Shown here: positions 10,091-53,546 of the stretch, one piece after another
Layout: each line of letters begins with the position of its first letter
Numbering within the stretch: position 1 is the first letter of the stretch
NCBI GenBank assembly: GCA_964455675.1
Contig: CAYVYK010000002.1
Location: 7,791 to 71,790 of the forward strand
Source: an uncultured Methanosarcinales archaeon
GTDB lineage: Archaea; Nanobdellota; Nanobdellia; Woesearchaeales; CAYVYK01
Reading direction: 5' to 3'
DNA length: 64,000 nucleotides
Notes under the pieces: model-generated
Database searches by the model: none
What the model saw: only the letters and a program-made list of their open reading frames with translations
Told to the model about the DNA's origin: nothing
Translations under genes and position numbers: made by a program

Positions 10091-10113
10091 GAATATAATC
10101 ATGAGCTCTCGTT

Positions 10114-10872
10114 CTATACAGCGAGGAAAAGCTTCAGTACGTACATGATCCCAATTCCAATAAGGAAGAATATTAACGCATAGAGGGATTTCTTTAAATC
10201 GGCTTCTCGGTGGAGTTCGGGAATAAGATCAGACGCGGCTATATATATGAATCCTCCGGCAGCAATCGGCACAAGGTAAGGTATAAACGTGTATTGGATA
10301 GACGATATTGTTAATCCAAAGAGGGCTCCAAGAACTGCGAATAGTGCTGTAAGAAAGTTTGCGAGAAGCGCTTTTGTTTTTGTAAATCCTCCATGGAGTA
10401 GTACCGCAAAGTCGCTGATCTCTTGAGGTATTTCATGCGCCATAATCGCAAGCGTTGTGACGACACCTAGACTCACTGAGGTTACAAATGCTGCTGCGAT
10501 AATGACTCCATCAATAAGGTTGTGGATACTATCACCAAGGAGACTCATATATGTGAAGGTGTGGACTTCACAGTCTCCCTCGTTCCTGTGGCAATGATGC
10601 CATTTCAGCATCCGTTCAACTATAAAAAATAAGGTGAATCCTGCAAGCACACCAAAACTTGCGACTTGGGGTCCTGATTCTTCCACAGACTCTGCGATAA
10701 GGTGAAGAAACGCTCCACCCATAAGGGCTCCAGCAGACATTCCGACAAGAAGGTATAGGGTCTTACGTAGGAAGGTATCTTTAAGTGATAAAGTTACGAG
10801 ACCGACAAGGCTGCATAAACTCACCGCAATGGTCGCGAGTAGTGTATATATTACAACGGACATGTGGTACAC
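10114..10872 (-). CDS. ZIP family metal (zinc) transporter
   Basis: 8-TM protein with HEIPQEISDFAVLL ZIP signature and His-rich loop (HHCHRNEGDCEVH). Confidence 0.8.
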   Translation of the reverse strand: MYHMSVVIYTLLATIAVSLCSLVGLVTLSLKDTFLRKTLYLLVGMSAGALMGGAFLHLIAESVEESGPQVASFGVLAGFTLFFIVERMLKWHHCHRNEGDCEVHTFTYMSLLGDSIHNLIDGVIIAAAFVTSVSLGVVTTLAIMAHEIPQEISDFAVLLHGGFTKTKALLANFLTALFAVLGALFGLTISSIQYTFIPYLVPIAAGGFIYIAASDLIPELHREADLKKSLYALIFFLIGIGIMYVLKLFLAV

Positions 10873-10963
10873 TCGAGCTGCGGGTACTTATAAGTATTGC
10901 GGTGGGAAGACACAAGTATTGTGCGTTTGATCTTGAGCCTATCAAAAATTATATATAGAAGCG

Positions 10964-11392
10964 ATGACAAAAAACAGAAGGGGTGTTACTATAGCACAGT
11001 GTAAAGTTTGCGGAAAGGAGATTGACCGTGAAGCTGATCAGGTGGCGTATTCTGACGCTGTTGGAGGTTTATGTCACTTAGAGTGCTGTGTACGCTCATC
11101 AATGACTGAAGCCTCTGCTGAACTCGATGCCCGTAACTATCAGACCTCAATACCAGCAGAAAGGGTTGCAGGCGATTTTTTTACAGCAACCGAGCCAATC
11201 CGTAAAAAAGAATCCAAGAAAAAGATGAAAAAGGGACCTAAAAAAATTAGGAAGGTAGTTAAACAGAAAATCAAGATAAAAAAGACCGTAAAGAAGCCCA
11301 AGAGAACTTTAAAGGCTCAAAAAACGGCCAAAAAATCAGAAAAGAGGTTTAATAGTCTTTTTCAAAGGGTAAAGAAAGCTCTGAAAAGGTAA
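10964..11392 (+). CDS. Zinc-ribbon protein with long lysine-rich basic C-terminal tail (putative nucleic-acid-binding protein)
   Basis: CKVCG...CHLEC Cys4 pattern N-terminal; C-terminal 70 aa >40% Lys (KKESKKKMKKGPKKIRKVVKQKIKIKKTVKKPKR). Confidence 0.5.
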   Translation: MTKNRRGVTIAQCKVCGKEIDREADQVAYSDAVGGLCHLECCVRSSMTEASAELDARNYQTSIPAERVAGDFFTATEPIRKKESKKKMKKGPKKIRKVVKQKIKIKKTVKKPKRTLKAQKTAKKSEKRFNSLFQRVKKALKR

Positions 11393-23818: not shown

Positions 23819-24817
23819 ATGATTGCGAAAAGCATTCAGATCCTGGAGTCTTTGCAAACACCCTCGGGCCTCTGTTCAGCGTCGAAACAGAGCGTGAACA
23901 CAGGCTACAATAGGGCTTGGATTCGTGATAATATTTATGAGTCTCTGGGTCTTGAAGCAGCGAAGCGACACTGGGCACTTAAGCGTATTTACCGGGCGAT
24001 TTTTGACGTGCTCCTCAAGCATGAAGGCAAGATCGATGCCGCAATTCAATCAAAGCCCCAGCATCACTATGAGTATATTCACCCTCGGTACGATCCGCAT
24101 ACGTTAAGCGAAATCTGGGAGGAGTGGGGAAATCGACAGAATGACGCTATCGGCGCATTTCTGTATAAGGTTGGCGATCTAGAATCAAAAGGTGTGAAGG
24201 TTATCAGGGATGATGATGATCGCCGAATTCTGCAGAAGCTTGTATGGTATCTTGATGCCATTGAGTATTGGCACGATGAGGATAATGGTGTCTGGGAGGA
24301 GAATCTCGAAATCCATGCATCATCTGTTGGTGCCTGCGTCGCAGGACTCCGTGCTGTTCGGAACCTCGTTGACGTTCATCCAGATCTTTTAAGGAAAGGC
24401 GAGGAATCACTAAATGACCTGTTGCCATACGAATCGACTACAAAGGACGCAGACCTTGCACTCCTTAGCCTAGTCTATCCGTTCAATGTTGTTTCCGACT
24501 CGCAGCGCGACGCCATTTTAAAAAATGTGGAAGAGAAGCTCGTCCGTCAGCGAGGCACTATCCGCTATGTTGGTGATAAGTACTATAACCGCGATGGAGA
24601 AGCAGAATGGGTAATGGGATTTCCATGGCTTGCAGTGATCTACAAGTCCTTGAACCGCCCTGACAAATATGCTCACTATATGAGAAAGACAATCGAATGC
24701 GCTAATGCAGAAGGAGAACTGCCCGAATTGTATTATGCGAACTCCACAGAGTGCAACGAAAATACTCCTCTTGGCTGGACGCAAGCACTCTTTCTCGTCG
24801 CTGCGATGGACGAATGA
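23819..24817 (+). CDS. Glycoside hydrolase family 15-like (glucoamylase-related) protein, short form
   Basis: YNRAWIRDN and NGVWEEN (GH15 general-acid Glu region) motifs. Confidence 0.6.
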   Translation: MIAKSIQILESLQTPSGLCSASKQSVNTGYNRAWIRDNIYESLGLEAAKRHWALKRIYRAIFDVLLKHEGKIDAAIQSKPQHHYEYIHPRYDPHTLSEIWEEWGNRQNDAIGAFLYKVGDLESKGVKVIRDDDDRRILQKLVWYLDAIEYWHDEDNGVWEENLEIHASSVGACVAGLRAVRNLVDVHPDLLRKGEESLNDLLPYESTTKDADLALLSLVYPFNVVSDSQRDAILKNVEEKLVRQRGTIRYVGDKYYNRDGEAEWVMGFPWLAVIYKSLNRPDKYAHYMRKTIECANAEGELPELYYANSTECNENTPLGWTQALFLVAAMDE

Positions 24818-27439: not shown

Positions 27440-27838
27440 TTATTCCATTTCAGGATTCTTCCGAAAGAAGTCCAGTACTCCTTGTTGAATGCACGGCCAT
27501 TGCCAGTAGGCACTTTGCTGCGCGTTCAAGACGTCCATGAGCGTTCCATCCTGGTGACCTCGTTTTAGGTCTTGCGCGAGCTGGGCATTAACATAGACTC
27601 CGCTGAAGAACACGCGTATAGGTTCTCTATGTCCTGGCGCTTGATAGTTGTTTACGTGTGATTCAATACGGACAGCCATGCATTCATAGTCTACTGATGG
27701 ATTGACCATGGTTATCCTCACCTTAGTATATGACTGCAACGAGAATTCTCTTGATCTGGGAGAAGCGTACTCGTCCAGGATCTTCGAGCGCGTTGTTATC
27801 TCCCTTGAACTTTGCATACCATCCAAGATGGTCTTCAC
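27440..27838 (-). CDS. Hypothetical protein (true start probably internal, around 27709)
   Basis: ORF overlaps the signal-peptidase gene by 115 nt in another frame; internal Met MVNPSV gives a non-overlapping 90-aa product. Confidence 0.35.
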   Translation of the reverse strand: MKTILDGMQSSREITTRSKILDEYASPRSREFSLQSYTKVRITMVNPSVDYECMAVRIESHVNNYQAPGHREPIRVFFSGVYVNAQLAQDLKRGHQDGTLMDVLNAQQSAYWQWPCIQQGVLDFFRKNPEME

Positions 27839-28280
27839 CTACTTCAATCACTCGGTGGATGACAGTTGCATTTGCGATAGGCGAATAGTAGGAAACAATA
27901 TCTCCGACGTGAATGTCTTCCGCACTTTTCGGAATAATTTCGATACCTGTCGATGTCGAATCAAGAACTGGGTCCATGGAGTATGTCGCGCTGAATCGCG
28001 CCCATTTCGCATTCTCAATGTCGAGAATCACCTTATCCTGTAAGATAGAAATGTCTTCCTCCTTGAGCCAGTCATGTGGTGATGGCTTATCTCGCCCGCT
28101 TGATTCCCGTGCTTTTTGGGCTTCTTCAAATGAGAGCGCTTTGGATGTCGAACCTGTCTGTTCACTCTCGATAAAATTCGGAGTAATGGATTTTGACCCG
28201 ATCAGATAGCCAGTGAACCCAGAGAGACCTACGCAGACGAAAACCGCAAGGCACATCCCAAGGATTTGTATCAAGTCCAT
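27723..28280 (-). CDS. Signal peptidase I (archaeal/eukaryal S26B, Sec11-like)
   Basis: N-terminal TM anchor; catalytic Ser region SMDPVL (SM.P motif); conserved His/Asp region VIHRVIEV...GD. Confidence 0.75.
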   Translation of the reverse strand: MDLIQILGMCLAVFVCVGLSGFTGYLIGSKSITPNFIESEQTGSTSKALSFEEAQKARESSGRDKPSPHDWLKEEDISILQDKVILDIENAKWARFSATYSMDPVLDSTSTGIEIIPKSAEDIHVGDIVSYYSPIANATVIHRVIEVGEDHLGWYAKFKGDNNALEDPGRVRFSQIKRILVAVIY

Positions 28281-29523: not shown

Positions 29524-31062
29524 ATGGGCGGTTTCAAGAATATTGTCAGCGTTATCGTTTTCTGTCTGTTGTGCGCATCGTCAGTGAGCGCAGCTGTGTA
29601 TCAAGGACAAAGAATGGTTGCCACGGGGAGAGCGGTCTTCAATCCGATGCAAGTTGTTCCTGCGGAACAGATCCCAGCAACTCAGGGTGAAGTTGTCTAT
29701 GCGGATGATACGATGGTGCCACTGATTAATGCGAACGCATGTTCAAAAGACTCTCAGTGTGAGACGAATAGCGTCAAGGTCGGTAATCCGGGAACGACTC
29801 CCTCATATGGGGATATATCAACTTCCGGAATAATCAAGACTTACGGAGGCCTTTCGGTTCTCGGCGGATATCTGAACCTTCCGCAAAACAGTGTGCAGGA
29901 GGAGGATATCATGTTCACAACCTACTGCGGCCCCGAGGATTCTCTCTACATTATGGGGGGTGATCTTCAATGCGGTCCTGGCGGAGGACAGGGGTGCCAG
30001 TGCCTTTACTGGCTGGATGCTGACCTTGGTGTAAAACAAGCGATCGACAATGGTGACACCATCACAATAAGTGGGGGTCCGGGCATCGTAACAAATGTGT
30101 ATACTCCAGAAAATATAAGTGTCAGCATTCTGCCGGATGGAATAAAGACCTATATGGTTGAGGATGAACAGATTACCTCAGAAAAAATTCATTGGAATAC
30201 TATCAGATCGGAGGATATTGAAGACCAAGCAATAAATAGCCCGAAAATCAGATCCAACGCAGTCACTTCTGATAAAGTCGTTGATGGAACGATAAGCCCA
30301 GCAGATGTTGGATTCAATTATGCAGGCAGCTCTTCAAAGGGAGGTCCTGCAACATCAGCCTACTCAGTTCCATGGACGGGAATAACAGGAATGCCTGCCG
30401 GATTTGCCGATGGTATTGATGATGTAGGATCAGGAGGCTCGTTCTACTTCACACTTGATGGTGACCTTGGACCGATGGAAACCGTTTACAATGGTGACAC
30501 CTTGGGTGTAAGGGGTGGGGAGGGTATCATTACAGAAGTCCTCACACCGGACAATGTAAGCATATCCATTATTCCAGGAGGAATCGACAACAACCTTCTA
30601 GGACAGAATGCAGTGACCTCAAACAAGATCGCCGACGGTACCATAACATACTCAGACATAAACACCGCATCAGTCCAGCGACGCGTTACAGGATCCTGCC
30701 CTTCAGGTTCAAGCATCCGCATCATTAACCCAGACGGAACCGTCGCATGTGAAACAGACGATTCAGGTTCCGGTGGAGGTGTGGTTGCTGGTGATGGCCT
30801 TTCAGGAAGTGGAACAGCTATGGATCCACTAGTTGTTAATGCCGGAAGTGGTATTTACGTGGACGGAGCGGGTGTGAGTGCTACCCTTGGAACCGCCATC
30901 AGCAGTTCGGAAATTATGGACGGAACAGTGGCAACCCAGGATATCATGAATGGCGCCGTAACCCAAACGAAGTTGAACCTCGGTCTATCGGGCTCAGGAA
31001 ACGCCTACGTCTGTGTGAACAGCGCAGGTCAGTTGTATAGAAGCCAAACTCCCTGCGTGTAG
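29524..31062 (+). CDS. Secreted repeat protein (tail-fibre-like short repeats), function unknown
   Basis: Signal peptide; repeated ~12-15 aa units (SEKIHWNTIRSEDI / SPKIRSNAVTSDKVVDGTISPADV / NAVTSNKIADGTITYSDI / GAVTQTKLNLG); Cys pairs at both ends; ends 80 nt before tRNA-Lys. Confidence 0.55.
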   Translation: MGGFKNIVSVIVFCLLCASSVSAAVYQGQRMVATGRAVFNPMQVVPAEQIPATQGEVVYADDTMVPLINANACSKDSQCETNSVKVGNPGTTPSYGDISTSGIIKTYGGLSVLGGYLNLPQNSVQEEDIMFTTYCGPEDSLYIMGGDLQCGPGGGQGCQCLYWLDADLGVKQAIDNGDTITISGGPGIVTNVYTPENISVSILPDGIKTYMVEDEQITSEKIHWNTIRSEDIEDQAINSPKIRSNAVTSDKVVDGTISPADVGFNYAGSSSKGGPATSAYSVPWTGITGMPAGFADGIDDVGSGGSFYFTLDGDLGPMETVYNGDTLGVRGGEGIITEVLTPDNVSISIIPGGIDNNLLGQNAVTSNKIADGTITYSDINTASVQRRVTGSCPSGSSIRIINPDGTVACETDDSGSGGGVVAGDGLSGSGTAMDPLVVNAGSGIYVDGAGVSATLGTAISSSEIMDGTVATQDIMNGAVTQTKLNLGLSGSGNAYVCVNSAGQLYRSQTPCV

Positions 31063-31141
31063 CGGGGTTTTTTCCTCTTTTTTCTTTAATATTTTTCTTC
31101 TCAGAAACATTTTTAAAGGATGTGCGAAAGCTTTCTCTCGT

Positions 31142-31215
31142 GGGCACTTAGCTCAGCCTGGCAGAGCGGACGGCTCTTAACCGTCAGGTCGGGGGTTCGA
31201 ATCCCCTAGTGCCCG
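31142..31215 (+). tRNA. tRNA-Lys (anticodon CUU)
   Basis: Cloverleaf folded by hand: acceptor GGGCACU/AGUGCCC, D-arm GCUC/GAGC, anticodon stem GACGG/CCGUC with loop CUCUUAA, T-arm GGGGG-UUCGAAU-CCCCU; no encoded CCA. Confidence 0.85.
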
Positions 31216-31253
31216 TAGCGAAGGGTACTAGGCTACGAACGACAGTGAGTTTG

Positions 31254-31265
31254 CCTAGTGCCCGT
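31254..31265 (+). repeat. Exact 12-nt direct repeat of the tRNA-Lys 3' end (CCTAGTGCCCGT), 37 nt downstream of the tRNA
   Basis: Identical to the tRNA's last 12 nt, seen directly; typical att-core duplication left by tRNA-targeting integrative elements. Confidence 0.55.
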
Positions 31266-31303
31266 TATTTCAGCAGTAGCTGTTCTGACCATTGTCTCCT
31301 GAG

Positions 31304-31632
31304 CCCGCAAGGGCGCAATAATTTTTATAATATCGGGGAATACTGGATACCGCCTTCTAGATATCGTGATGGTTCCCCAGCCCCTTGTGGACGAATGAGT
31401 ACGTCGGCAAACTTTGTTAGTGTGATTCCATTGAGGATGCTGCATCGTACAAAGTGATAAAAGATTTTGCTCGAGCAAATCTACTGCGTGAAGGACGTTA
31501 TTGCCACCTTGACCCGCAAGGATTCAATAATAATTCTCGGTGTACAGTGTAGTAGAACTTTCTATCACCCGAGAACACTGGTATGATGAATAAAGAGGTT
31601 CTTTCTTCCCAAAACCGCAAGGGCGCAGTAAC
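31304..31632 (+). repeat. Three dispersed copies of a ~19-nt motif (C)CCGCAAGG(G)...CA(A/G)TAA(T), each forming a short GNRA (GCAA) tetraloop hairpin
   Basis: Copies at about 31304, 31513 and 31614 in the non-coding region between tRNA-Lys and the amidase cluster. Confidence 0.5.
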
Positions 31633-31691
31633 TATCCTATTTATGTAAATGGATTTTTCTAAGAAAATGGGGAGTATCCAACGATGAGTTG

Positions 31692-32033
31692 CTAAGACAT
31701 CTCCTTATGGGGGATATACTCAAGAACGAACGATTCCTCTTCATCCTCAACATGCCGAGTTATGCGGAATTTCACTTTATCACGATTTGAACTGAAAGGC
31801 TTGAGGTGTTTCTTGAGCTGTTCTTTAAGTGAGTAGTCCCACACGCTCCATATCTTGTCAACAGCCTGGCCATTCTCAGAACTGACTGCTGTGCAAAACA
31901 AGCTATCATTGTCAGGATTTTTTTTGAAATTCCAATCTGAGATTTCGAGTTCGTATACCTGATCCGGGAGGAAATGCATGTATGCGTCCCAGTTACTCTT
32001 CTTTCGCTGCTTCTGGTACTTCCATGTCACCAT
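31692..32033 (-). CDS. Hypothetical protein
   Basis: 113-aa ORF downstream of and co-oriented with the amidase gene. Confidence 0.4.
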   Translation of the reverse strand: MVTWKYQKQRKKSNWDAYMHFLPDQVYELEISDWNFKKNPDNDSLFCTAVSSENGQAVDKIWSVWDYSLKEQLKKHLKPFSSNRDKVKFRITRHVEDEEESFVLEYIPHKEMS

Positions 32034-32069
32034 ATCTACACCATTAGTGGGTGCGCTTTAAAAGGTTTA

Positions 32070-33077
32070 CTACCGTGAAAGTCTGGCGATGAGCTCGTCC
32101 GCATCGGTGTAGATTCGCGTGCCAACCGGAAGTGCTCTCCAGTTGCGAACCTGCTCACCGGTCATGTGACCTTTGGGAGTGATGTAGAGAGTGTTTGCGT
32201 CGTCGTATTTCGCGCCCACCAACTGATACGCAGTCTGACCTCTGCCTAGGACGTATTCATGATGAGCAGGTTCATCTCCTGAAGCCAGAAAATTGTACTT
32301 GATGTTCGACCCGGCTTTGAGCGTAATTGTTCGTCCGTCCGCAAGTTTGAGAGTTCCATTTTTTTGAGGGACTGCCGTTTCAGGGACAATCCTTCCAGCT
32401 GCAACATCAGGGTCTTCGTCAGCCCAGTGGACTCCTAGCTTCTGCATGTCAACCGAGTTGGCACATTTTTTCCCTCGTTGCCTGAGTATTGCAGTTCCAT
32501 TTTTTAATTTTACCCGTTGTTCGTACACGCGTACTTGGCTGTGTTTAAGCACATGATCGTCATCCACTTGGTATCTTGTTTTGAGCTCTCCGATGAGCCA
32601 TGCTCCGCTAGCGTATTGTTCAGGCGTCAATTCCTTTGCATACGTCCCTTCAAATTCTATTCCAAGAGATCTACTATTCAGATATTCCTGCCCGTTCCAA
32701 ACGCTTGGTCCTGCGTGCTCTGCTCGTTCACGTTCTGGTACGATGGAGTAGATGGTTCCGTCTTTTCTGACAAGGTATTGAGCAGAATGATTATTTCGTA
32801 GCGTTTCAAGCGCGCCCGAGAAACCGCCTTCAGTAGTATGAATGATGATGTATTCTGTCGTCTTTCGTACCTTGCCGGGATTCTCCGCAACTTGGTGCGA
32901 TCGAACGATGTCAGTAAGCGGTGCGATAGCGTTGAGTGGCTGTGCTCGAAGTGGGGATGCGCTCCGCATGCTGTGTGATACAACATAGGTGACTCCCGCA
33001 GTCCCAAGAACCGCTGCAAGTATCCCGACTCCAATTTTAGATTTCCATAGACTGTTATGGAGAGGTTCTGACATCAC
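32070..33077 (-). CDS. N-acetylmuramoyl-L-alanine amidase (Amidase_2/PGRP domain), membrane-anchored, with C-terminal extra domain
   Basis: N-terminal TM anchor; IIIHTTEG ... AEHAGPSVWNGQEYLNSRSLGIEFEG matches the zinc-amidase PGRP/T7-lysozyme core; extra ~150-aa C-terminal region. Confidence 0.7.
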   Translation of the reverse strand: MMSEPLHNSLWKSKIGVGILAAVLGTAGVTYVVSHSMRSASPLRAQPLNAIAPLTDIVRSHQVAENPGKVRKTTEYIIIHTTEGGFSGALETLRNNHSAQYLVRKDGTIYSIVPERERAEHAGPSVWNGQEYLNSRSLGIEFEGTYAKELTPEQYASGAWLIGELKTRYQVDDDHVLKHSQVRVYEQRVKLKNGTAILRQRGKKCANSVDMQKLGVHWADEDPDVAAGRIVPETAVPQKNGTLKLADGRTITLKAGSNIKYNFLASGDEPAHHEYVLGRGQTAYQLVGAKYDDANTLYITPKGHMTGEQVRNWRALPVGTRIYTDADELIARLSR

Positions 33078-33264
33078 TCGAGAAGTAAACTACTCATATT
33101 TAAAGGTATCTAATATTAACTATTAATAAGTGGTAACAATATCACAATATGCTTAGGGAAAATACATGAATGAGAACCACAGTATAAAAGAGGATGGAAT
33201 TAACATAACCTCTTCTGAGTAACAGCACAATATTAATAAGGAAAACTACTGAAAAACCTTTGAA

Positions 33265-34536
33265 ATGGCGGAAGAGGTAGGGAAGGCAGATCAGTCATCA
33301 GTACAGAAGAAACCTGAAGATAAAAAAAACCCAGATGACGAGCTGGATCTTCTGTCTGCCCCAAGAAAACAGCTTCTCCTTCTTATTACAAAGAGCCTCG
33401 AAGCAGGAAAGAACGAGAAAGCCATCCAAAGTGATCTCATAAAGGCTGGCTGGTCCAAGACCATGGTCAAGGAACTGATGGACGAGGCACAGAATAGTGG
33501 TCAAGTCGCAAAAGCTGGTTACTTTAAACGTAAGGAGGGCGAAGCGCCCGTGCCTATTCTCAAGGATGCTCCAATCATTCGTTTCGAGGAGGTATCAAAG
33601 GCATTTGATGAGAATATTGTGCTGAACAAGATTAACCTTGAAATTAAGGCTGGAGAAATTTTTGGGATCATCGGTCTATCTGGGAGTGGCAAGAGCACGA
33701 TGCTCAACCTCATCATCGGATTTTATTATGCTGACGAGGGCAAAGTAATCTATCGCACACCGGGCAGCCCCGAGTATAAGAGTGTAGTGACTCACCCGGA
33801 TGAAGTGAAGAACCTCATCGGATTCTCGCCCCAGGATGCATCATTCTATTCAAACCTAACTGCGGAAGAGAATTTATTCTATTTTGGGAGTCTGTACGGC
33901 CTTTCATCACAGACACTGAGACAGAACGTGTATGCGCTACTCGATCTTGTCGAGCTCACGAGTTCGAGAAAGACACTCGCGAAGCATCTAAGTGGGGGAA
34001 TGCAACGTAGACTGAGTATCGCGTGCGCTCTCATACATGAGCCAAAGATATTGGTGCTCGACGAGCCGACCGCAGATCTTGACCCAGTTATCCGGCAGGA
34101 TATCTGGGAGGTTATTGAGAAAATCCACGAGAAGGGGACGACGGTTATTCTCACGTCGCATCTATTGTCTGAGCTTGAGACGTTGTGCGACCGCGTAGCA
34201 ATCATCCACAATGGAGGAATCTTAAGGCTCGGAACTCCCCTTGAGATCAAGAACCTCTACACTCACGCACAGGAAATCGTGATCGAAACCATGATGGGAG
34301 AGTACACGCCGATTATGGATCAGATCAAGAAAATGAGGCTACCAGTGAAGAAAATGGTTGTTGAGCATAATCGCCTGGTTATGATGAGTGATAGCGCCGA
34401 AGAAGTGCTGCATAAAGTGCTCAACATCCTCGAGAAACGCAGCGAGAGTGTTATTGATATCACCCTCAACAAACCCAGTTTGTCCGAAGTATTCAGCAAC
34501 CTTGTGAAGCACAAGAAGGACGAACCCGAGACTTGA
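33265..34536 (+). CDS. ABC transporter ATP-binding protein with ~100-aa charged N-terminal extension
   Basis: Walker A GLSGSGKST, signature LSGGMQRRLSIA, Walker B ILVLDEPTADLD. Confidence 0.85.
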   Translation: MAEEVGKADQSSVQKKPEDKKNPDDELDLLSAPRKQLLLLITKSLEAGKNEKAIQSDLIKAGWSKTMVKELMDEAQNSGQVAKAGYFKRKEGEAPVPILKDAPIIRFEEVSKAFDENIVLNKINLEIKAGEIFGIIGLSGSGKSTMLNLIIGFYYADEGKVIYRTPGSPEYKSVVTHPDEVKNLIGFSPQDASFYSNLTAEENLFYFGSLYGLSSQTLRQNVYALLDLVELTSSRKTLAKHLSGGMQRRLSIACALIHEPKILVLDEPTADLDPVIRQDIWEVIEKIHEKGTTVILTSHLLSELETLCDRVAIIHNGGILRLGTPLEIKNLYTHAQEIVIETMMGEYTPIMDQIKKMRLPVKKMVVEHNRLVMMSDSAEEVLHKVLNILEKRSESVIDITLNKPSLSEVFSNLVKHKKDEPET

Positions 34537-34540
34537 AATC

Positions 34541-36310
34541 ATGAACCGTATTATCAGCATTATAAAGAAGAACTTGAAGCTTCTCGTCAGGGCGAAGAGC
34601 TCAGCGCTGATTGTAGTACTTGGGCCGCTGCTCCTGATTTTCCTTGTGGGGCTCGCATTTGATAACACACAAGCTTACCAGGTATCGATTGGAACGTATT
34701 CTGAAGGGTACAACGAGCTTTCCACATCGTTCATCGAGAACTTGAAGGAGAGCCAGTTCAGGGTTGAAGCTTTCCCGACGGAAGAATTGTGCATTGACGC
34801 GATAAAACAGGGAAAAGTACACACGTGCATGGTTTTCCCTCCAGGCCTACAGATCGGCAAAGAAGGCAGCAACCAGATAACGTTTCATATAGATTATTCC
34901 CGCATCAACCTGGTATGGTCAATCCTTGATACGGTATCAGGCCATGTGACTGAGAGATCATCACAAATATCGCTCAACCTTACTAATACGGTTCTAAATG
35001 CGCTCCTCCAGGTGAGAGATCGCGCGATCAAGACTAAGCCAATTCTTGTTGACTCAACAACGAAGAATTCCGATGTGCAGAAGAAAGTAAGCGATGTGAA
35101 GAAGGATCTTATTGCGCTTGATCTAAGCATGAATCCCGCAGAGTTCAAGCTCACGGAGATTCAGACTTGGGCCACCTCGTTTCAGCAGCAGGTCCAGACA
35201 TTGATTACGGGATCAGACAAGTACTTCGCAAACATCACGTCAAGGACAAATGATGTTATAGATTCAGTCGAAGACGCAAACCTGTCCACTTCCACGGAGA
35301 ATGCGATTATTGGCGATCTCGAGGAAATCTTGAACCTAACAAAGAAGGTAGACACTCTCGTAAGCGGTCAGACGTCGCTCTCTACGACAAAAATAACAGA
35401 GCTCAACACCCTGCTCGACCAGATCGAAGGAAAAGTGACGGAGACTAAGACGAAGATCGATGGCGTTGTTCAGTTCCGTGAGGGTGCAAACGCGAAGCTC
35501 TCCGAAGTGGATCAGTTGCTCACGAATAGCCTGAACAACATCGTTGTCATTCAGAAGAACATGAACTTTATTGAGAGCACCGTAGATTCTATTGAGTTTA
35601 AGGAAGCATCATCGATTGTTGCACCAATCACGACACAGATTAAACCAGTCATTACGGAAAAGACACACTTAAATTATCTTTTTCCAAGCCTTATCGTTCT
35701 TGTTATTATGTTTATCTGTATCCTACTTTCCGCGATTCTCGTCGAGATGGAAAAGAACAGCAAGGCGAATTTCAGAAGCTTCCTGACGCCAACACCAGAT
35801 ATAATTTTTGTCGTTGCGACGTATCTCACAACCATGATTCTCCTGGTCATTCAGCTGGCTATTATTCTTGGTACGACAGCGATCTTTTTCAAGGCGAGAG
35901 TGTTTGGCAATCTCTGGATTTCCGCCCTCGTCCTCCTGCTCATCGGAACGTTTTTCTCGCTCTTTGGCATGTTGATTGGATATGTTCTAAAGTCTGAGGA
36001 GACCGCAACCCTCGCAGCAATTTCGATAGGCACGATTTTCCTCTTGTTGTCAGGACTTGTTCTCCCGATGGAGAGCATGCCTCAATATATCCGCGATGTT
36101 GCTGAGTATAATCCCTATGTCATTGGGGAAGGTGTACTTAGGAAAGCTATGTTATTCAGCGCAAATATTGGGGATATGGACATCGCGATATATACTCTGC
36201 TTGGGTACTCTGCTGCAGTGTTCTATATCATCTATCTCCTACAGAAACTAAGCAAAAAGCGTTTGCTGAGCGGTATTTTCAAACTACCGCGTATGAGAAG
36301 GGCAAAATAG
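34541..36310 (+). CDS. ABC-2/YhgE-Pip-like permease with ~330-aa coiled-coil-rich extracytoplasmic domain
   Basis: N-terminal TM, long hydrophilic helical region, 5 C-terminal TM helices. Confidence 0.7.
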   Translation: MNRIISIIKKNLKLLVRAKSSALIVVLGPLLLIFLVGLAFDNTQAYQVSIGTYSEGYNELSTSFIENLKESQFRVEAFPTEELCIDAIKQGKVHTCMVFPPGLQIGKEGSNQITFHIDYSRINLVWSILDTVSGHVTERSSQISLNLTNTVLNALLQVRDRAIKTKPILVDSTTKNSDVQKKVSDVKKDLIALDLSMNPAEFKLTEIQTWATSFQQQVQTLITGSDKYFANITSRTNDVIDSVEDANLSTSTENAIIGDLEEILNLTKKVDTLVSGQTSLSTTKITELNTLLDQIEGKVTETKTKIDGVVQFREGANAKLSEVDQLLTNSLNNIVVIQKNMNFIESTVDSIEFKEASSIVAPITTQIKPVITEKTHLNYLFPSLIVLVIMFICILLSAILVEMEKNSKANFRSFLTPTPDIIFVVATYLTTMILLVIQLAIILGTTAIFFKARVFGNLWISALVLLLIGTFFSLFGMLIGYVLKSEETATLAAISIGTIFLLLSGLVLPMESMPQYIRDVAEYNPYVIGEGVLRKAMLFSANIGDMDIAIYTLLGYSAAVFYIIYLLQKLSKKRLLSGIFKLPRMRRAK

Positions 36311-43844: not shown

Positions 43845-44453
43845 CTACTGTTGAAAATACCGTCGTGCTGCCCATGCACCAAGAAGTATGAGTGCAGCAT
43901 ACCATACTCCTGCACCGATAATGCGAATGAGTGCGTCTTCAAAAAACTGCATGGGATACATCCGGATGATGAGGGAGTTGACGTCAAAGATCCATGTCCC
44001 TGATTTGAAGAACAATTCATGGAATCCATAAAAAAGTCCCGTAAAGAGTGATCCTGCGATGATGACGAGGATGAGTGACAAAGCAAGATGCACTCCCGAA
44101 CCGTAGAGTAATACCGTGACCGCTTCACGAAAGCCGTGCTTTTTCCATTCATACCATACCACGATACTGCAGAGGAGAAGCGCGATCATGGCGGATATCT
44201 CGATACTAAGGATGATCACTCGCACATCACGCATATGCGCCCGTTCTTCATCTGTAAAGGGGACACCATCGATTGTTGATGAGAAACCGGTGAGATAGCG
44301 CGCAACAGATGCGTGATACTCTGTTGGTTCTGGTATCCCAAGGTGTATTCGTTCGTTTTCGTAGAAGCCACTATCAAGAAGTACAGTCATGAGAGCCAGA
44401 CCGCAGACAAGGATTGGAACGGATACCGCGCCTAGAATAATCGTTGCTCGCAT
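43845..44453 (-). CDS. Integral membrane protein (DUF1461-like)
   Basis: 202 aa, 4-5 TM helices. Confidence 0.45.
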   Translation of the reverse strand: MRATIILGAVSVPILVCGLALMTVLLDSGFYENERIHLGIPEPTEYHASVARYLTGFSSTIDGVPFTDEERAHMRDVRVIILSIEISAMIALLLCSIVVWYEWKKHGFREAVTVLLYGSGVHLALSLILVIIAGSLFTGLFYGFHELFFKSGTWIFDVNSLIIRMYPMQFFEDALIRIIGAGVWYAALILLGAWAARRYFQQ

Positions 44454-47384: not shown

Positions 47385-50300
47385 TTATGTCACAACCACT
47401 TGCAGTGGCCTGCCATCGCGGGTGTTGCCGTTGTTGTCTTCTGCGCGGAATACGAGGTCATACGTCGCTGCTGCCCCACCAGTCATTTCGCTGAATGCAA
47501 ACTGGTATAGTACCTCTGTGCTTCCAGAGGGTGACTCGCGCTTGATCCCGTCTCGGACGACGGATTCCTTTCCTGCTGAATTTACCGTCAGTTTGACTTT
47601 TTTGACGCCGCTTGGCGAAACGCCCTGACCGGTATCTCCAAAATCAACCACCGGGATATCAATATAATAATCTTTACCTCGGGATACTTCATATTTGTCC
47701 TCTTTGGTCTCTACGAGTTTGTATTGGTCCCCTTCCTTGTAGTACATGGTGGTAGTTCGTAGTTCGGGGGGTGTGACGTCTCTCTTGTCGATCCCTCCGG
47801 CTGTTGTCGAACCGATTGGTTCTGCGCAGATTGCCGAGAATTGGTACTCGAACTTCTGCGCAGTGCCGAGGTATTGCGCGACGCTGTTCTGGTTTGGTTC
47901 GATCGTCCCGTCTGCTGCCTGAATTCCTTCATATATCGTGAACGTTCCAGTCCACGCAACTGGCCTATTCTGATCACACTGCTGAGTTCCCTGCTCGGTC
48001 TGGGTGACTGCTCGGCCGACGAGAACGCTTGCCGTCAGTTTGCCAAAGTCGTTTATTGACGTTCTCAGTGTAATAATGGATTCTCCGCAGTAGTATGTCT
48101 TTCCATCCCCTCTGCAGCGAATCACTGATCCACTTGGTTCAAATGTCTGCACTCCAGTGTTTGGATTCTTCACAAAGTCTCCTGCGATGTATTCAAGATA
48201 TTTCTCTCCGTTCGGTCCAAGCTCTTCAGATACCTGCACTTTCATCGTCGATGAACATTGAACAGGTGTCACGATGCCAAGGTTGTTCACTCCCTCGATG
48301 ACGCATGTGCTGCTGAGCGTGCCAGGTCCTGTGGTGAAATCTGTTCGTGATATCGGAGGGAATGATCGTGTGAGAGGAATGGTTTCACGCCCGTTGAAAG
48401 CGAGGACCTCTGGATTGTTGTAATTATTGTAAATGGATAATCCGTTCTGGTTATTCACATTCACGACGAGATATTTGGTGTACGGACACTCGCTTTCGGA
48501 AACGCCCTCGCATCCTGCCTCATCTGGCATTTTCTGGCTGACCTCGACATCAAATCCAAGGGAATCTCCGATCCTGAATGGATCACCTAGGGCCTTTGGC
48601 CTTCCAATGATGCGCGCCCAATTCTCAGTGCCTGTCTGGAATCCGCAGCGATAACTTAGTGTTGCGACGTCAAATCCGCAAATGCTTGGTGGCGGCGCTC
48701 CTTCCTGTCCAATGTCGCATTCCACGCTGTCCTTGACTGTTTGGTCTTTATTGTCCTTGTACTCCCATGTGAGTCGTGCTTTGTTGTATCGATAGGGCAT
48801 GGTTGTTGTCCAAAAGATGTCCCCTATGTCCTGTTCGCTCAGAACATCTCCTGCTTTCATGTATCCGCCCTTGATGATTGTGGTTTGTGGTGTTCCGCGT
48901 TGGCAGTCGCATAGTCCGTTCTCGAATCCTTCGCTCGCCTTGCATTCTGGTGTTGCGCTGCATTCCATCTCAAGGTACCATCGTATGTCCGCTCCAGCGA
49001 CAAGTCCCGCTCCAAAGTGATACGTCCATGTTGTCATTCCTGGTACTGGCCTTGAGACTTGATTGAATGACATGAATCGCCGCTGGCATGGATAAAGGAG
49101 TCCTTGGCTTTTCACTGGAACAGGGAATCCTTCGCCCTCGACGAGTCCTTCAACGTCGAGATCCCAAACACCAGTAAACGCCCATAAGCAGATCGCGTGG
49201 ATGAGCCGTTTTTCAACAAACAGCGTTTTATAGAGTGTCGTTCCGCCATAGCGATTTGTTATTGAGTCTGACACGCTGTTTCCCGCGCTCGTGAGGGCAC
49301 CGAAGAGATTTCCCATCGTGTCGCTTCCTCCTCGCTGCAGTCCTGAGGCGTACTTCTCCGTGAAGCAATTGATCATGTCCCAGATGAGATCACAGATGTA
49401 GACGCTGAGGACTGCCCTGCAGATGCCTGCGCTTCCGTCTCCTGTCTGGATGATGCTGTTAAAGCATGTCTTAACGGCTGTGAGAATTGCCTTCCACAGC
49501 CGCAGGTAGCTCGTGATTGCAGGCAAGCATACGCACTGGATGCTGCGAAGAAGACTGCTAGTTGGATCAACAATGTATTCCTGGTCCGTTATTCCAATTT
49601 TTGCGTAAATCCGCTCCCACACGTCGTCCGTTTCCTGCCGGTTGATCATTCTGCCATCGGACGCGCACCCGATGACATCCGCGTGGAACTTCTCTTTGAG
49701 TGAAAGCTTGAGCTGGTCGCGTGTCCTTTGATCCGCGTCGTCTTTTGGCATTTCAAACATATCGGTAACGTCCTGGACTGGCCTGAATACGAGGTACGAG
49801 TTTACGGGGCTATCCCCCATGCTGCCAGTTTCATAGTCACTTACACCTGCATTCTCGACTTCTATTGCGCGAAGATCCTTTCGTTCCACGATATAGCCTC
49901 GGTGGATGTAATACAGTTTGTCCTCCGCTGCCCTGCTTCCTCCGATCGATTCTGCGAAGTCTTCAGCGCTGATGATGCGGTAGTAAATGTTTCTGTCGTC
50001 ATTATACGAAAAGACATGCCCTCCAGTGCACGGATATGTTTTTCCCCGGATTTCTCGGGGTTCTCCTTCCGCTTCCCGCATGGCTGACTCTTTTCCAGCT
50101 TCGTCAGGGTAGAATATCACATTTCCAAGGAGTGTGTTCACAGCTCGTCCAGATGGAGAGTACGGGTCCGATACAAGCGCTCTGCTTTCTGATCCATATC
50201 GGAAGTAGGTGTTGACGAGTTGTGGTACCGCCTTTCCATCAGCATCACAGAATCCAGCGACGGCGTTCCAGAGTTTGTTGCAGTCTCCCTCGTTTGAACG

Positions 50301-53300
50301 GTCGTTCGCCTGTTCTGCGGCGAGGCATTTTGATTCTTTCAGCTCGTTCATGATGACGCATGCCGAATTCCAGGTGTTCATGTATTCTGTGCTGCAGCAT
50401 TTTTCGTTTCTTTCGTGAAGTTTACTGCAGTCAACATCCGTTTCTGCGTTTGCCTCACCAGCAACAGTTCCTGCAACAGTCCCGCTTCCTCCGGCTGCGT
50501 TTCCTTTGCCGTTTTGTTGATAGTAATTGTACTGCTTGATGATCTCGTTATAATCATCCGTCGGTACTTCCGCGCAGTCGCTTCCAGCTTTGATAATTGC
50601 TCCATTCCCGCCTCCAAGGTTGACATCAGTGTTCCTTTTATTGCGCTGGTTGTCCTTGATGTATTTCTGGAATGTTGGCGCGCTCGGACAGAACATGCGA
50701 TCGCAAACCCAGTGAGAGAGCTTTTCGAATTTCTGCCTGGTCTCGATTGCCCCTTGGCATGCAAGGCAAGCTTCATTCTTCTGTTTTGATCCTTCATTAT
50801 CTGCTGGATAGACAACATTACATTGTCCCGTCGCTGCGACATCCTTCTTGAACACTCCGCCAGTAAACATTTGGAGGATGTTGCTGTATTCGCAGTTCCA
50901 GCTCTCTTGGAAAGCTAAGACAAACTGGAATAGCCATCCAAAGAGGCACGCGTAAAGCGTGTATTTTTGCACGGTCGCGAGTGGCTTGAGTACTTTGTCT
51001 ATTAGCTCAACCGCTTTTTCTAGGACCTGCACCGATGTCTTCAGGAAGTTGTTTGGGATTACGCTTGGGGGAATGCGTTTGTCTATCGGTATTTCGAGCA
51101 GCCAGCACTGTCTTTGGATGATATTGTTCACTCGGAATCCTTCTTCAGTCATGTCAAGGTATGCTGCCTGGAAGTTCTCGTCGATTTTTTCTTCGATCGT
51201 GAGTTCCATGACGAGTGGTACCCTGATGCATCCTGTTCCCTGGAGGATGCATCGGTCCTCATGGAGCATGCTGATGTTTCTTTCCTTTTCGTAGATTGTC
51301 CAATTCTTTCCTTCACGCGGCTGCTCATTGCCCTGGTAGGACGGATCATATGCGCGGATGTTGACATTGATATACCCGGCCGTGTAGTCCTTGTTCCACA
51401 TTGATCGCACGGTGACTTTATCCGTGTCATAATGGTTTTTCCAGTTTTGCGATAGCGTTTGGAACGTGATCCTTGGTTGCCTTGTGATTTTGTATCGCGG
51501 TGTTGATGTCTGTCCGTAGCTCGTCTCGTTCTGTATGCTTGCCGTCGATGAGAGGTTAACCGCAAATCCTATTTTTGCAAGGCCTTCGAGGATGAGCCTT
51601 GGATTGAGCATGGAGGGGGTGGGTTGTGATATGACAACGTTGAACCAGTTGCCATACCCGCACATCGCGTAGATAATGTCTTTTCGCTCTTCAGCTTCAA
51701 GTCCAGACGTTCCTCGCGCAACAATTCGAACATGATTCATCCATGCGTCGGAGCTCTCGATAAGTCCTTGGACTGATTCTCCTTCTTCTCCCGTTTCTGA
51801 GCTGAACTTGATGTCTCTTTCGAGGGGGATGTGCATTGTGAATGAGTAGTCCTCATGGGTTACGGTAACGTTGACAGGACTTGTCTTGTTGTTGACATAC
51901 GCGTAGAGCGTTGCCTTTTTGTCGAGCTTTCCTCGGACATAGATATCGTTCACATAGCTTGGAGTCAATTCATCAAGGTTGATCTCAACGAATTTTGGCG
52001 CCTGATTTTCAAACACGACTTTCTTTTCCACGGTCACTTTGTTTCCTGCTCGATCCTCGGCCGTGATGGTAACATAGTTCTCGCCCTGGCCCAGCGACAC
52101 CGACTGTGAGAAGTCGCCGCTCAGTGTGAGTTTTTGTGCTTGTTTGAATATCGAACAGGTGAGGTTGAACGTATTCGGCGTCCGGTTGAACTGCTGGCCT
52201 CCAAGAGGTGTTGTGATGATGAGCGACTCTGATAGGACACCTTCATTGCATGAGTCATCAATTGCGCTCACCTGGTACCGATAGGTAGATCCGGAATCAA
52301 CGAATGCGCCCGTATCTCGAAAGTTCGTCGTCCTCGTTGACGTGATCCTCATTCCGTTTCTGTAGATGACGTATTCTCGCAGGTCTTTCTCGGTGTTGCG
52401 ATCCCATCGTAATTCGATCGTGTTCGTGTATACCGTTCCGTTCGTCAGTCCCTTGACCCGTGCTGGTGCTTCTCTGTCTGCTTTGTTGATAACGTCGAAT
52501 GTTATCGTCGCGAGTTCATCCACACTTCCATTCACTGTTATTGCTTGTGTCTTTGCCGTGTCATTGATAGTTCCAATGACAAGCTTGGGAGGCCTGGTAT
52601 CGACGGTGACGGCGAACTCCTTGGCAAGTGTTCCGCCAAGTTGGTCGGTCGCTTCCACTTTAAGCTTATTCTCTCCTTCGTTGAGCATAATTCCGGCGAT
52701 CATGAAGCTTCCGTTCGAGTTTGATCGCACGGATCTGCGAAGTTGTCCTCCCATGAAGAATTTGACGTCGCTGTTCACTTTTGTCGTGCCGGTGACATCA
52801 ATCAATTTTTGGCTCATGAATGGTGGAAGCGTGACGTTCAGGAATGGCTGTACGGTGTCTTCTCCCGTGACAAGCGTTGATTCTGTGCTATTCGTGCATA
52901 CGTTTGCGACGCTGCATGAGCTCACGAGGTACTTGTAACTTTTCCCTTCCTGCAAGGAGAGGACGATCGCGTGCTGGAAAACATATCCTGGAGAGGTATC
53001 AGTGGTGTTTGCTTTCTCAATGCCATAGTACACTTTGGATGTTGCAGGAACATCGGTTGTCCAGCCGATTGTTGCGGTTGTCTTCGTCACACTTTGTATT
53101 TTGACATTTGTTACTTGTGGAGGGTTGAGATTTGGCTGCTGGGCCGTCGTGAAATGGTAGTTTGATCCGAGATTGTCAAGCGTAACGGACTCTCCTTGTT
53201 CGTCGATTCCAACAATCCTGTAGTAGTAGAGTGTTTGGCTTTCCAATGGCGAGAGGACGACGCTGTGGGTCGTTGATAACTGTGCTGATTCACCGATGAG

Positions 53301-53546
53301 GCTGAGGCTTCCCATCGATCCATACTCCACGCGTCCTGTTGACGGAACATCGCTCGTCCACGAGATTGTGGCTTGATTAAATCCAACGCTTGTGTGCGGC
53401 GGTGTCGAAGGCGTGATCGTCAACGCGTACGTCATATGGATAGGTATGAAGATGATGAGTTGTATCATAAATATCGCCACCACTCGAAGGACTGCTTGCG
53501 ATGGCTTCAGAGAACTCCATGGTTGCTCGTCTGCCATGTTGCTCAC
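47385..53546 (-). CDS. Giant (2053 aa) N-terminally anchored surface protein: FN3-like and Ig-like domains followed by ~1300-aa cysteine-rich region of unknown fold
   Basis: Uninterrupted 6.2-kb ORF; N-terminal hydrophobic anchor; two purple-acid-phosphatase-N-like FN3 domains, a further FN3 and Ig-like segments; >40 N-x-S/T sequons; ~70 Cys in the C-terminal two-thirds; GTG start overlapping the upstream stop. Confidence 0.8.
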   Translation of the reverse strand: MSNMADEQPWSSLKPSQAVLRVVAIFMIQLIIFIPIHMTYALTITPSTPPHTSVGFNQATISWTSDVPSTGRVEYGSMGSLSLIGESAQLSTTHSVVLSPLESQTLYYYRIVGIDEQGESVTLDNLGSNYHFTTAQQPNLNPPQVTNVKIQSVTKTTATIGWTTDVPATSKVYYGIEKANTTDTSPGYVFQHAIVLSLQEGKSYKYLVSSCSVANVCTNSTESTLVTGEDTVQPFLNVTLPPFMSQKLIDVTGTTKVNSDVKFFMGGQLRRSVRSNSNGSFMIAGIMLNEGENKLKVEATDQLGGTLAKEFAVTVDTRPPKLVIGTINDTAKTQAITVNGSVDELATITFDVINKADREAPARVKGLTNGTVYTNTIELRWDRNTEKDLREYVIYRNGMRITSTRTTNFRDTGAFVDSGSTYRYQVSAIDDSCNEGVLSESLIITTPLGGQQFNRTPNTFNLTCSIFKQAQKLTLSGDFSQSVSLGQGENYVTITAEDRAGNKVTVEKKVVFENQAPKFVEINLDELTPSYVNDIYVRGKLDKKATLYAYVNNKTSPVNVTVTHEDYSFTMHIPLERDIKFSSETGEEGESVQGLIESSDAWMNHVRIVARGTSGLEAEERKDIIYAMCGYGNWFNVVISQPTPSMLNPRLILEGLAKIGFAVNLSSTASIQNETSYGQTSTPRYKITRQPRITFQTLSQNWKNHYDTDKVTVRSMWNKDYTAGYINVNIRAYDPSYQGNEQPREGKNWTIYEKERNISMLHEDRCILQGTGCIRVPLVMELTIEEKIDENFQAAYLDMTEEGFRVNNIIQRQCWLLEIPIDKRIPPSVIPNNFLKTSVQVLEKAVELIDKVLKPLATVQKYTLYACLFGWLFQFVLAFQESWNCEYSNILQMFTGGVFKKDVAATGQCNVVYPADNEGSKQKNEACLACQGAIETRQKFEKLSHWVCDRMFCPSAPTFQKYIKDNQRNKRNTDVNLGGGNGAIIKAGSDCAEVPTDDYNEIIKQYNYYQQNGKGNAAGGSGTVAGTVAGEANAETDVDCSKLHERNEKCCSTEYMNTWNSACVIMNELKESKCLAAEQANDRSNEGDCNKLWNAVAGFCDADGKAVPQLVNTYFRYGSESRALVSDPYSPSGRAVNTLLGNVIFYPDEAGKESAMREAEGEPREIRGKTYPCTGGHVFSYNDDRNIYYRIISAEDFAESIGGSRAAEDKLYYIHRGYIVERKDLRAIEVENAGVSDYETGSMGDSPVNSYLVFRPVQDVTDMFEMPKDDADQRTRDQLKLSLKEKFHADVIGCASDGRMINRQETDDVWERIYAKIGITDQEYIVDPTSSLLRSIQCVCLPAITSYLRLWKAILTAVKTCFNSIIQTGDGSAGICRAVLSVYICDLIWDMINCFTEKYASGLQRGGSDTMGNLFGALTSAGNSVSDSITNRYGGTTLYKTLFVEKRLIHAICLWAFTGVWDLDVEGLVEGEGFPVPVKSQGLLYPCQRRFMSFNQVSRPVPGMTTWTYHFGAGLVAGADIRWYLEMECSATPECKASEGFENGLCDCQRGTPQTTIIKGGYMKAGDVLSEQDIGDIFWTTTMPYRYNKARLTWEYKDNKDQTVKDSVECDIGQEGAPPPSICGFDVATLSYRCGFQTGTENWARIIGRPKALGDPFRIGDSLGFDVEVSQKMPDEAGCEGVSESECPYTKYLVVNVNNQNGLSIYNNYNNPEVLAFNGRETIPLTRSFPPISRTDFTTGPGTLSSTCVIEGVNNLGIVTPVQCSSTMKVQVSEELGPNGEKYLEYIAGDFVKNPNTGVQTFEPSGSVIRCRGDGKTYYCGESIITLRTSINDFGKLTASVLVGRAVTQTEQGTQQCDQNRPVAWTGTFTIYEGIQAADGTIEPNQNSVAQYLGTAQKFEYQFSAICAEPIGSTTAGGIDKRDVTPPELRTTTMYYKEGDQYKLVETKEDKYEVSRGKDYYIDIPVVDFGDTGQGVSPSGVKKVKLTVNSAGKESVVRDGIKRESPSGSTEVLYQFAFSEMTGGAAATYDLVFRAEDNNGNTRDGRPLQVVVT

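Follow-up and report, generated by a model that had tools for sequence, protein, structure and literature searches.

Gene and protein layout

The gene described here occupies positions 32070..33077, on the minus strand, of a 64-kb stretch of contig CAYVYK010000002.1, which is called the window below and is the whole of this genome that was analysed. It encodes an Amidase_2 protein, predicted to be an exported zinc N-acetylmuramoyl-L-alanine amidase. The product has 335 amino acids (aa) when read from the GTG at 33077 and 334 aa when read from the ATG at 33074 (protein P0001), and the stop codon lies at 32070-32072. The ATG is the more likely start codon. A TATA-box-like element, TTTAAATA, was read from the sequence at 33097..33104 on the minus strand, with its centre ~26 nt upstream of this ATG. 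This spacing is that of an archaeal TATA box and suggests that the amidase mRNA is leaderless, arising from an archaeal promoter. A scan for sigma-70 promoters and terminators gave hits at the level of shuffled sequence only and is, in any case, irrelevant for an archaeon. The gene has a GC content of 0.496, a GC content at third codon positions (GC3) of 0.455 and a codon distance of 0.207, all of which fall inside the range of the window.

The protein carries three amidase motifs: HTTEG (aa 80-84), AEHAG (aa 119-123) and SLGIEFEG (aa 137-144). These are preceded by the sole hydrophobic segment of the protein, IGVGILAAVLGTAGVTYVV, which spans aa 15-33 (32979..33035, minus strand) and has a mean Kyte-Doolittle value of 2.04. 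Here, an n-region with K12 and K14 is followed by a 19-residue h-region and a possible S-H-S cleavage site at 33-35. The segment would be either the h-region of a Sec signal peptide or an N-in/C-out signal anchor, and there is no lipobox Cys in the protein. Other members of the family also begin with Sec- or Tat-like leaders, including one (P0004) with a Tat-like RR motif.

The catalytic domain, including a family-specific C-terminal extension, spans aa 73-230 (32388..32861, minus strand). Within it lies a β-hairpin insertion of aa 183-201 (32475..32531, minus strand), positioned between the second and third zinc ligands, followed by the sequence DPDVAAGR at aa 222-229, which is the DPDVxAGR segment of the family. 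An extra C-terminal region, aa 216-335, includes one copy of a ~55-aa repeat at aa 272-327 (32097..32264, minus strand) that scores 70.3 bits against the hidden Markov model (HMM) of the repeat.

Catalytic site and fold

The Pfam Amidase_2 profile (PF01510) matches aa 73-182 with an E-value of 9.4e-25 and 87.9 bits, relative to a cutoff of 26, and all 29 aligned relatives match it as well. When the single sequence was compared to the PDB, the best match was AmpD (1j3g, 5.5e-10), in an ungapped alignment that places E141 on Glu116 and H179 on His154. The first zinc histidine, H80, lies within HTTEG. The codons for these residues are at 32838-32840 (H80), 32655-32657 (E141) and 32541-32543 (H179), and that for the third ligand, C205, is at 32463-32465, all on the minus strand; K203 and K204 complete the set of key residues. 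For comparison, the zinc histidines are H34 and H154 in AmpD and H17 and H122 in T7 lysozyme, and the Lys-x-ligand arrangement is K162-x-D164 and K128-x-C130, respectively.

The third ligand sits further along the chain than in these enzymes. The gap between the second His and C205 is 25 residues in the window protein and 21 in most of the family, whereas it is presumably ~7-9 in T7 lysozyme and AmpD. As the hairpin insertion precedes it, C205 lies beyond the standard Pfam and PDB alignments. An alignment of 28 of the best matches shows a conserved RGRK(R/K)(C/D) motif after the insertion, which in the window protein reads R201-G202-K203-K204-C205. Relatives read RGRKKDPG, which is the 'RK.DPG' of AmpD and AmpDh2. 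Across 192 family cores, E141, H179 and D222 are present in every one, H80 and R201 in 191 each, and K204 in 179. The column of C205 holds Cys in 154 cores, Asp in 19 and Gly in 16, where the Gly may reflect an alignment shift; R201, G202 and K204 before it are near-invariant.

An AlphaFold2 (AF2) model made with the family alignment has a predicted local distance difference test (pLDDT) score above 90 for aa 70-180 and of ~85-90 for aa 180-230. In this model, the insertion forms a β-hairpin with strands at 183-191 and 194-201 (pLDDT about 85-89). The top 50 Foldseek matches in the PDB are all AmpD, AmpDh2/3, AmiD, amidase endolysins, T7 lysozyme or peptidoglycan recognition proteins (PGRPs), with a best E-value of 3.5e-9.

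The PGRP matches raise a different explanation, namely that the protein is a receptor or adhesin that binds peptidoglycan without cleaving it, as non-amidase PGRPs do, and with which the archaeon senses or sticks to bacteria. The fold is shared and PGRP-SA, which is non-catalytic, is among the matches; in addition, the third zinc ligand is out of reach of standard HMM alignments. Set against this, H80, E141, H179, K203/K204 and C205 are all present and conserved family-wide. Non-catalytic PGRPs typically lose the Cys or Asp zinc ligand, and the window protein keeps its Cys. A binding-only role is therefore quite unlikely, and the protein is instead predicted, from its conserved residues, to be an active zinc amidase and not a degenerate binder.

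A preliminary description of this locus, made from the sequence alone, had proposed a zinc-amidase gene at 32070-33077 with an N-terminal membrane anchor and an extra C-terminal domain. The open reading frame (ORF), its three motifs, the Amidase_2 match and three concordant assemblies all bear out the gene; the single segment at aa 15-33 is the putative export or anchor element and aa 216-335 the additional region. That description had also named loss of the zinc-binding residues as an observation that would overturn it. In the family alignment, H80, H179, C205 and E141 are all conserved, so that no such loss is seen.

The C-terminal repeat and the family

An exhaustive HMMER search returned 2639 homologs at E<1e-3, of which 19 have E<1e-30 and are ~35% identical to the window protein. 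The hallmarks of the family are a Sec- or Tat-like leader, the hairpin insertion, the RGRK(C/D) motif, DPDVxAGR and one to four copies of the ~55-aa C-terminal repeat. The consensus of the repeat is TAWxIAGxxYxxxxTxYxFPxGxxxxGxxIxxWxxIPxGTxV. It is found in 172 of the 220 related proteins collected, with one copy in 35 of them, two in 64, three in 56 and four in 17.

When modelled alone, the repeat folds with a pLDDT of 91 and a β-α-β-β-β-α topology. Neither aa 216-335 of the amidase nor any of 43 repeat units has a Pfam match, with E-values up to 10 allowed; comparison of the repeat profile to PDB sequences gave only chance matches, such as Pim-1 kinase; and a Foldseek search of the PDB with the repeat model produced nothing significant (best E=0.35). 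Weak matches to LysM, which has a β-α-α-β fold, recur among the viral structures of BFVD, with a probability of at most 0.72, E>=0.22, a TM-score of ~0.46 and a root mean square deviation of 2.7-3.3 Å. A profile comparison by hhalign to a set of seven LysM sequences gave 10% probability over 16 columns. A LysM-like, wall-binding role is a lead from these models and not a result, and the repeat is best described as a candidate cell-wall-binding module.

Distribution and ancestry

The named members of the family come from Kiritimatiellae, Acidobacteriota, Parcubacteria and one unclassified 'bacterium'. Four of the homolog contexts examined are bacterial chromosomes, where the neighbours include exosortase EpsH, a YkuD L,D-transpeptidase, toxin-antitoxin pairs and similar genes. 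Besides the window, at least four archaeal contigs carry family members. The first (L088) encodes P0005, the second-best match, which has three repeats, alongside ribosomal protein S3Ae, an archaeal Bud32 and a 50%-identical homolog of the window ORF at 27723-28280. P0137 lies at 10001-11197 of a contig (L089) with aEF-1beta and an archaeal-type topoisomerase I, and P0138 at 4437-5549 of a contig that is syntenic with it (L090). The fourth, P0221, belongs to the cluster of P0104 and is found on a contig (L101) with the archaeal S13-S4-S11 operon.

P0137 and P0138 are without the C-terminal repeat and have a ~140-aa N-terminal extension instead. Their neighbourhood, which is kept in two species, includes thioredoxin, acetate kinase, fructose-bisphosphate (FBP) aldolase, a ROK kinase and a GH15 gene. 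A GH15-like gene is also present in the window at 23819-24817, 8 kb from the amidase, and this could be a coincidence. A separate protein, P0227, which NCBI assigns to a Candidatus Micrarchaeota archaeon, combines PG_binding_3 with Amidase_2 and is an independent DPANN example of an Amidase_2 wall hydrolase.

In a neighbour-joining (NJ) tree, the window protein falls in a divergent group of 19 members, in which archaeal and bacterial proteins are mixed, with 66% bootstrap. It joins the archaeal P0104, P0137 and P0138 in 35 of 200 replicates (17%), and P0005 is never among them. Given this level of support, neither a single acquisition by archaea nor a named donor phylum is claimed. The direction of transfer, from bacteria to archaea, follows from the distribution and function of the family, and on this sequence evidence the family ancestry of the amidase is bacterial.

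Archaeal setting of the gene

The window encodes eIF2-gamma, SRP54, a DEAD helicase, HisRS and Kae1, as well as the exosome proteins Rrp4, Rrp41 and Rrp42, SBDS, proteasome alpha and an archaeal LonB. The amidase is flanked by eIF2-gamma and PTH2, ~6 kb away, and by the exosome/SBDS/proteasome cluster, ~3 kb away on the other side. In a scan of genome contigs, the window eIF2-gamma is 62-67% identical to that of dozens of metagenome-assembled genomes of Woesearchaeota and Nanoarchaeota, with none closer. As archaeal housekeeping genes flank the amidase and eIF2-gamma resembles that of these two groups, the window is archaeal, as had been proposed, and its gene content places the organism as a divergent DPANN archaeon of the Woesearchaeota type. 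When the amidase was used as the query against genome contigs, no match was obtained. It is also absent from 80 Woesearchaeota loci, whose synteny with the window is almost nil and too eroded to show an insertion.

As the family is mostly bacterial, mis-assembly or binning might have put a bacterial gene into an archaeal contig. The window, however, is continuous, with archaeal markers 3-7 kb from the gene on both sides. P0001, with its 334 aa, is unchanged in two independent Logan assemblies (L001 and L002) and on one 205-kb NCBI contig, and the junctions are the same in all of them. In addition, the gene has its archaeal TATA-like box at -26. Since three assemblies agree and GC, GC3 and codon usage are native, an artefact of this kind is very unlikely and its probability close to negligible.

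The gene nearest to the amidase is a 113-aa orphan ORF at 31692..32033, which lies 36 nt downstream on the same (minus) strand. It has its own TATA-like element, TTTTAAAG, at 32056-32063 on the minus strand, centred ~26 nt before its ATG in the same way as TTTAAATA is before the amidase. This arrangement suggests that the amidase and the 113-aa ORF are two separate leaderless transcripts and not an operon. The ORF is co-assembled with the amidase in both Logan assemblies. It has no transmembrane segment and no match in Pfam, NCBIfam, PHROGs or the PDB, and no counterpart was found beside the amidase homologs. A role as an immunity or partner protein was considered for it and rejected, as it matches no family and is not conserved next to the homologs.

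Is the gene viral?

The preliminary description had placed the amidase in a tRNA-associated island and had left its origin as either bacterial or that of a viral lysin. The tRNA in question is tRNA-Lys (CTT) at 31141..31216 on the plus strand, ~850 bp from the amidase. If a virus or other element had integrated there, the gene could be its remnant or cargo, that is, an endolysin of a bacterial or archaeal virus. Beyond the proximity of the tRNA, two observations fit this. PHROG lysis families match the amidase core, with a best E-value of 2.6e-16, and a repeat of the tail-fibre type (phrog_892, 1.9e-13) is present in a nearby secreted protein of 512 aa.

Several findings speak against an element. 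The 3' 27-mer of the tRNA occurs once in the window with up to 3 mismatches allowed, so that there is no att-like repeat. No integrase, capsid, terminase or holin family was matched by the neighbouring ORFs scanned, which are a subset of those in the window; the comparison to PHROGs covered six ORFs near the amidase. Composition is typical of the window, and housekeeping genes flank the amidase closely. Similarly, no close viral relatives were found in phage GenBank or IMG/VR. The best phage GenBank matches are 31-46% identical over 70-112 residues, confined to the core domain, and IMG/VR matches are 27-33% identical; these viral proteins are without the hairpin, the DPDV motif and the repeat, and the closest relatives of the amidase are chromosomal genes. 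The PHROG matches reflect the shared catalytic fold only. A viral or element-borne origin is thus decidedly improbable. Of the two sources first proposed, the bacterial one agrees with the named relatives and their contexts, the viral one is disfavoured by the low similarity and missing hallmarks, and the notion of an island finds no support.

Other features of the window

The 512-aa secreted protein is encoded at 29524-31062 on the plus strand and ends 79 bp before the tRNA-Lys gene. It has a signal peptide, internally duplicated halves and the repeat that matches the phage tail-fibre family. A role as a surface adhesin is possible, and the 80 Woesearchaeota loci contained no homolog of it.

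A 475-bp non-coding stretch, 31217-31691, separates the tRNA-Lys gene from the 113-aa ORF. It contains three copies of TTAYTGNNNCCTTGCGG, at 31305-31321, 31514-31530 and 31615-31631 on the minus strand, and there is no other copy in the 64 kb (0.05 expected). Each copy is preceded by AT-rich sequence and holds a short GC hairpin with a GCAA loop. The region has no Rfam match. The copies could be promoters or starts of small RNAs, or a regulatory repeat.

Two ABC-2-type exporter pairs, each an ATPase and a permease with a large extracellular loop, are encoded at 2819-5385 (minus strand) and 33265-36310 (plus strand). The second is divergent from the amidase, with 187 bp between the starts, and no sign of a functional link was found. 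The minus-strand gene at 43845-44453 encodes a homolog of the lipoprotein intramolecular transacylase Lit (PF07314, E=2.8e-22). Lit is a bacterial (Firmicutes-type) lipoprotein-modifying enzyme, and this would hence be another bacterial-type envelope gene in the window. Finally, three large ORFs of 2053, 667 and 419 aa lie in a row at 47385-56866 on the minus strand. The 2053-aa product has Ig-like, fn3, purple-acid-phosphatase-N and glucodextranase-B domains, with no transglycosylase domain, and resembles the giant surface proteins of DPANN archaea.

Comparison to known amidases and archaeal wall hydrolases

When the family profile was compared to the PDB, the best solved relatives were exported enzymes of Gram-negative bacteria, namely AmpDh2 and AmpDh3 of Pseudomonas aeruginosa and AmiD of Escherichia coli (4bj4, 4bxd and 2bh7), with E-values of 3.9e-24 for AmpDh2, 6.5e-17 for AmiD and 5.5e-15 for AmpDh3. 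These proteins share with the window protein the fold, the His/His/(Asp or Cys) zinc site, the catalytic Glu and the overall plan of an exported amidase with a C-terminal domain. In AmiD and AmpDh2, this domain is presumably of the PG_binding type. The window family differs in having an insertion of 21-25 aa before RGRK(C/D), the invariant DPDVxAGR and its own ~55-aa repeat, and the window protein differs further in being without a lipobox Cys and in having an archaeal host.

AmpD (1j3g/2y2b) scores 1.4e-15 with the family profile and aligns at the catalytic Glu and the second His, as described above. It is a cytoplasmic 1,6-anhydro-MurNAc-L-Ala amidase (MurNAc, N-acetylmuramic acid) that acts as a recycling enzyme. 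The window protein, in contrast, has a putative export segment, the hairpin and the C-terminal repeat, its third ligand is Cys where AmpD has Asp, and it falls short of the AmpD equivalog NF008758 (61.4 bits vs a cutoff of 143). Such an export segment is incompatible with a recycling enzyme of the cytoplasm. T7 lysozyme and the Amidase_2 endolysins (PDB 1lba, 6srt and 7f5i; PHROG 1794) have the same fold, and T7 lysozyme also uses Cys as the third ligand. The window protein differs from them in its low, core-only similarity, its family hallmarks and its surroundings, which are not those of a phage.

Wall hydrolases are not new to archaea. Modular peptidoglycan hydrolases are found in about 5% of archaeal genomes, among which Nanoarchaeota stand out, and two haloarchaeal enzymes of this type kill a bacterium (Strock et al. 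2025, PLoS Biol, PMC12352652). Its S2 table includes Amidase_2 architectures from Halovivax (SH3_3+Amidase_2), Pacearchaeota (PG_binding_1+Amidase_2), Aenigmarchaeota (LysM+Amidase_2), Methanofastidiosa and Borrarchaeota, and the Woesearchaeales entries examined in its part 2 combine LysM with either SLT or Peptidase_M15 (PMC12352652). Archaeal peptidoglycan hydrolases, including DPANN proteins of the Amidase_2 type, had already been catalogued, so that the novelty attached to the gene at first was overstated.

The window protein resembles these enzymes in being a predicted secreted, bacterial-type Amidase_2 hydrolase with an extra module, patchy distribution, ancestry by horizontal gene transfer and a place among DPANN archaea. 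It differs in that its gene lies in a core chromosomal region and not on a plasmid or small contig. Its catalytic domain is on the S10 list of Strock et al. (PMC12352652), and it falls outside their definition solely since no Pfam family matches its C-terminal module (aa 216-335). For this reason, it would escape their survey.

That Woesearchaeota carry genes for peptidoglycan degradation has been under discussion since 2015-2022 (PMC9723730, PMC8204110). GH23 transglycosylases have been proposed to degrade bacterial walls in Woesearchaeota and Pacearchaeota (PMC8204110, PMC9723730, PMC10936187), and the scavenging of wall amino acids has been proposed as well (PMC11537232). Like the window enzyme, these GH23 proteins are proposed to act outside DPANN cells, where they would bind or degrade bacterial walls (PMC8204110, PMC9723730). 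They are transglycosylase-like and up to 3000 aa long, whereas the window protein is an amidase of 335 aa.

Proposed function and substrate

Taken as a whole, the evidence makes it probable, with good but not full confidence, that the product of the gene is an exported zinc N-acetylmuramoyl-L-alanine amidase with a working active site, and that an ancestor of this Woesearchaeota-like DPANN archaeon gained the gene from bacteria. Here, a leaderless mRNA would be produced from the archaeal TATA promoter. The hydrophobic segment would direct the protein to Sec export, so that the catalytic domain comes to lie on the outer side of the membrane, where it either stays attached through an uncleaved anchor or is set free. 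By analogy to AmpD, AmpDh2 and T7 lysozyme, H80, H179 and C205 would hold Zn2+, E141 would act as the general base and K203/K204 would stabilise the transition state. The chemistry of the family predicts that the amide between the MurNAc lactyl group and L-Ala is hydrolysed, so that stem peptides are stripped from the glycan strands. A probable role of the hairpin (aa 183-201) and of the one C-terminal repeat is to shape the peptidoglycan substrate or to bind it.

As the archaeal lineage of the producer is not known to make murein, the substrate would be the peptidoglycan of neighbouring or host bacteria, or wall debris. The use may be attack, attachment or the scavenging of peptides and amino sugars. 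The preliminary description had stated that the substrate must be bacterial. Given the bacterial ancestry, bacterial peptidoglycan is the best candidate, although this is a softer statement than the original.

A more specific proposal is that the enzyme stays membrane-anchored on the Woesearchaeota-like cell and works at the point of contact with a bacterial host or prey, with the repeat as a new peptidoglycan-binding module. This is possible but doubtful.

Several points weigh against the proposed function. C205 owes its assignment as the third zinc ligand to the family alignment, as the Pfam and PDB alignments stop at aa 182. No significant likeness to LysM was found for the repeat (Foldseek E>=0.22, hhalign 10%), and NJ bootstraps of 17-66% resolve no donor lineage. 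Given that the view of the genome is of 64 kb only, the producer or its host might conceivably make a murein-like polymer. Lastly, cultivated DPANN archaea are episymbionts of archaea (PMC8204110).

The lifestyle of these cultivated relatives leads to another explanation, in which the substrate is not bacterial murein but an envelope polymer, pseudomurein-like or otherwise amide-linked, that belongs to the producer or to its archaeal host. In several archaeal lineages, family members are retained amid conserved chromosomal neighbours, as on the syntenic contigs L089 and L090, which suggests a stable, housekeeping-like role. What counts against an archaeal substrate is that, to our knowledge, the Amidase_2 enzymes characterised so far act on MurNAc-L-Ala. 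In addition, no Mur-type genes were seen in the 64-kb window. Pseudomurein is described as being without MurNAc and confined to Methanobacteriales and Methanopyrales (PMC10117817), and the survey of archaeal peptidoglycan hydrolases found almost none in pseudomurein makers (PMC12352652). An archaeal substrate is accordingly unlikely, and bacterial peptidoglycan is preferred.

Implications

The new points are modest: a hairpin-bearing subfamily of Amidase_2, an unannotated C-terminal repeat and several archaeal lineages that carry the family. The finding fits a recently described pattern of archaeal anti-bacterial wall hydrolases and changes no established concept; it is solid and unsurprising. 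It does show that archaeal hydrolases are overlooked by surveys built on lists of domains, such as that of Strock et al. 2025, when the binding module is not yet a Pfam domain. Should the repeat prove to be a binding module, Pfam-based counts of modular wall hydrolases would be too low for archaea and bacteria alike.

For the organism, an active enzyme would extend wall degradation by DPANN archaea, mostly described for GH23 transglycosylases, to amidases. It would also support the view that bacteria are interaction partners, food or targets of attack for some of these ultra-small archaea. If the enzyme is anchored and works at contact sites, it would provide molecular evidence for episymbiosis or predation between DPANN archaea and bacteria.

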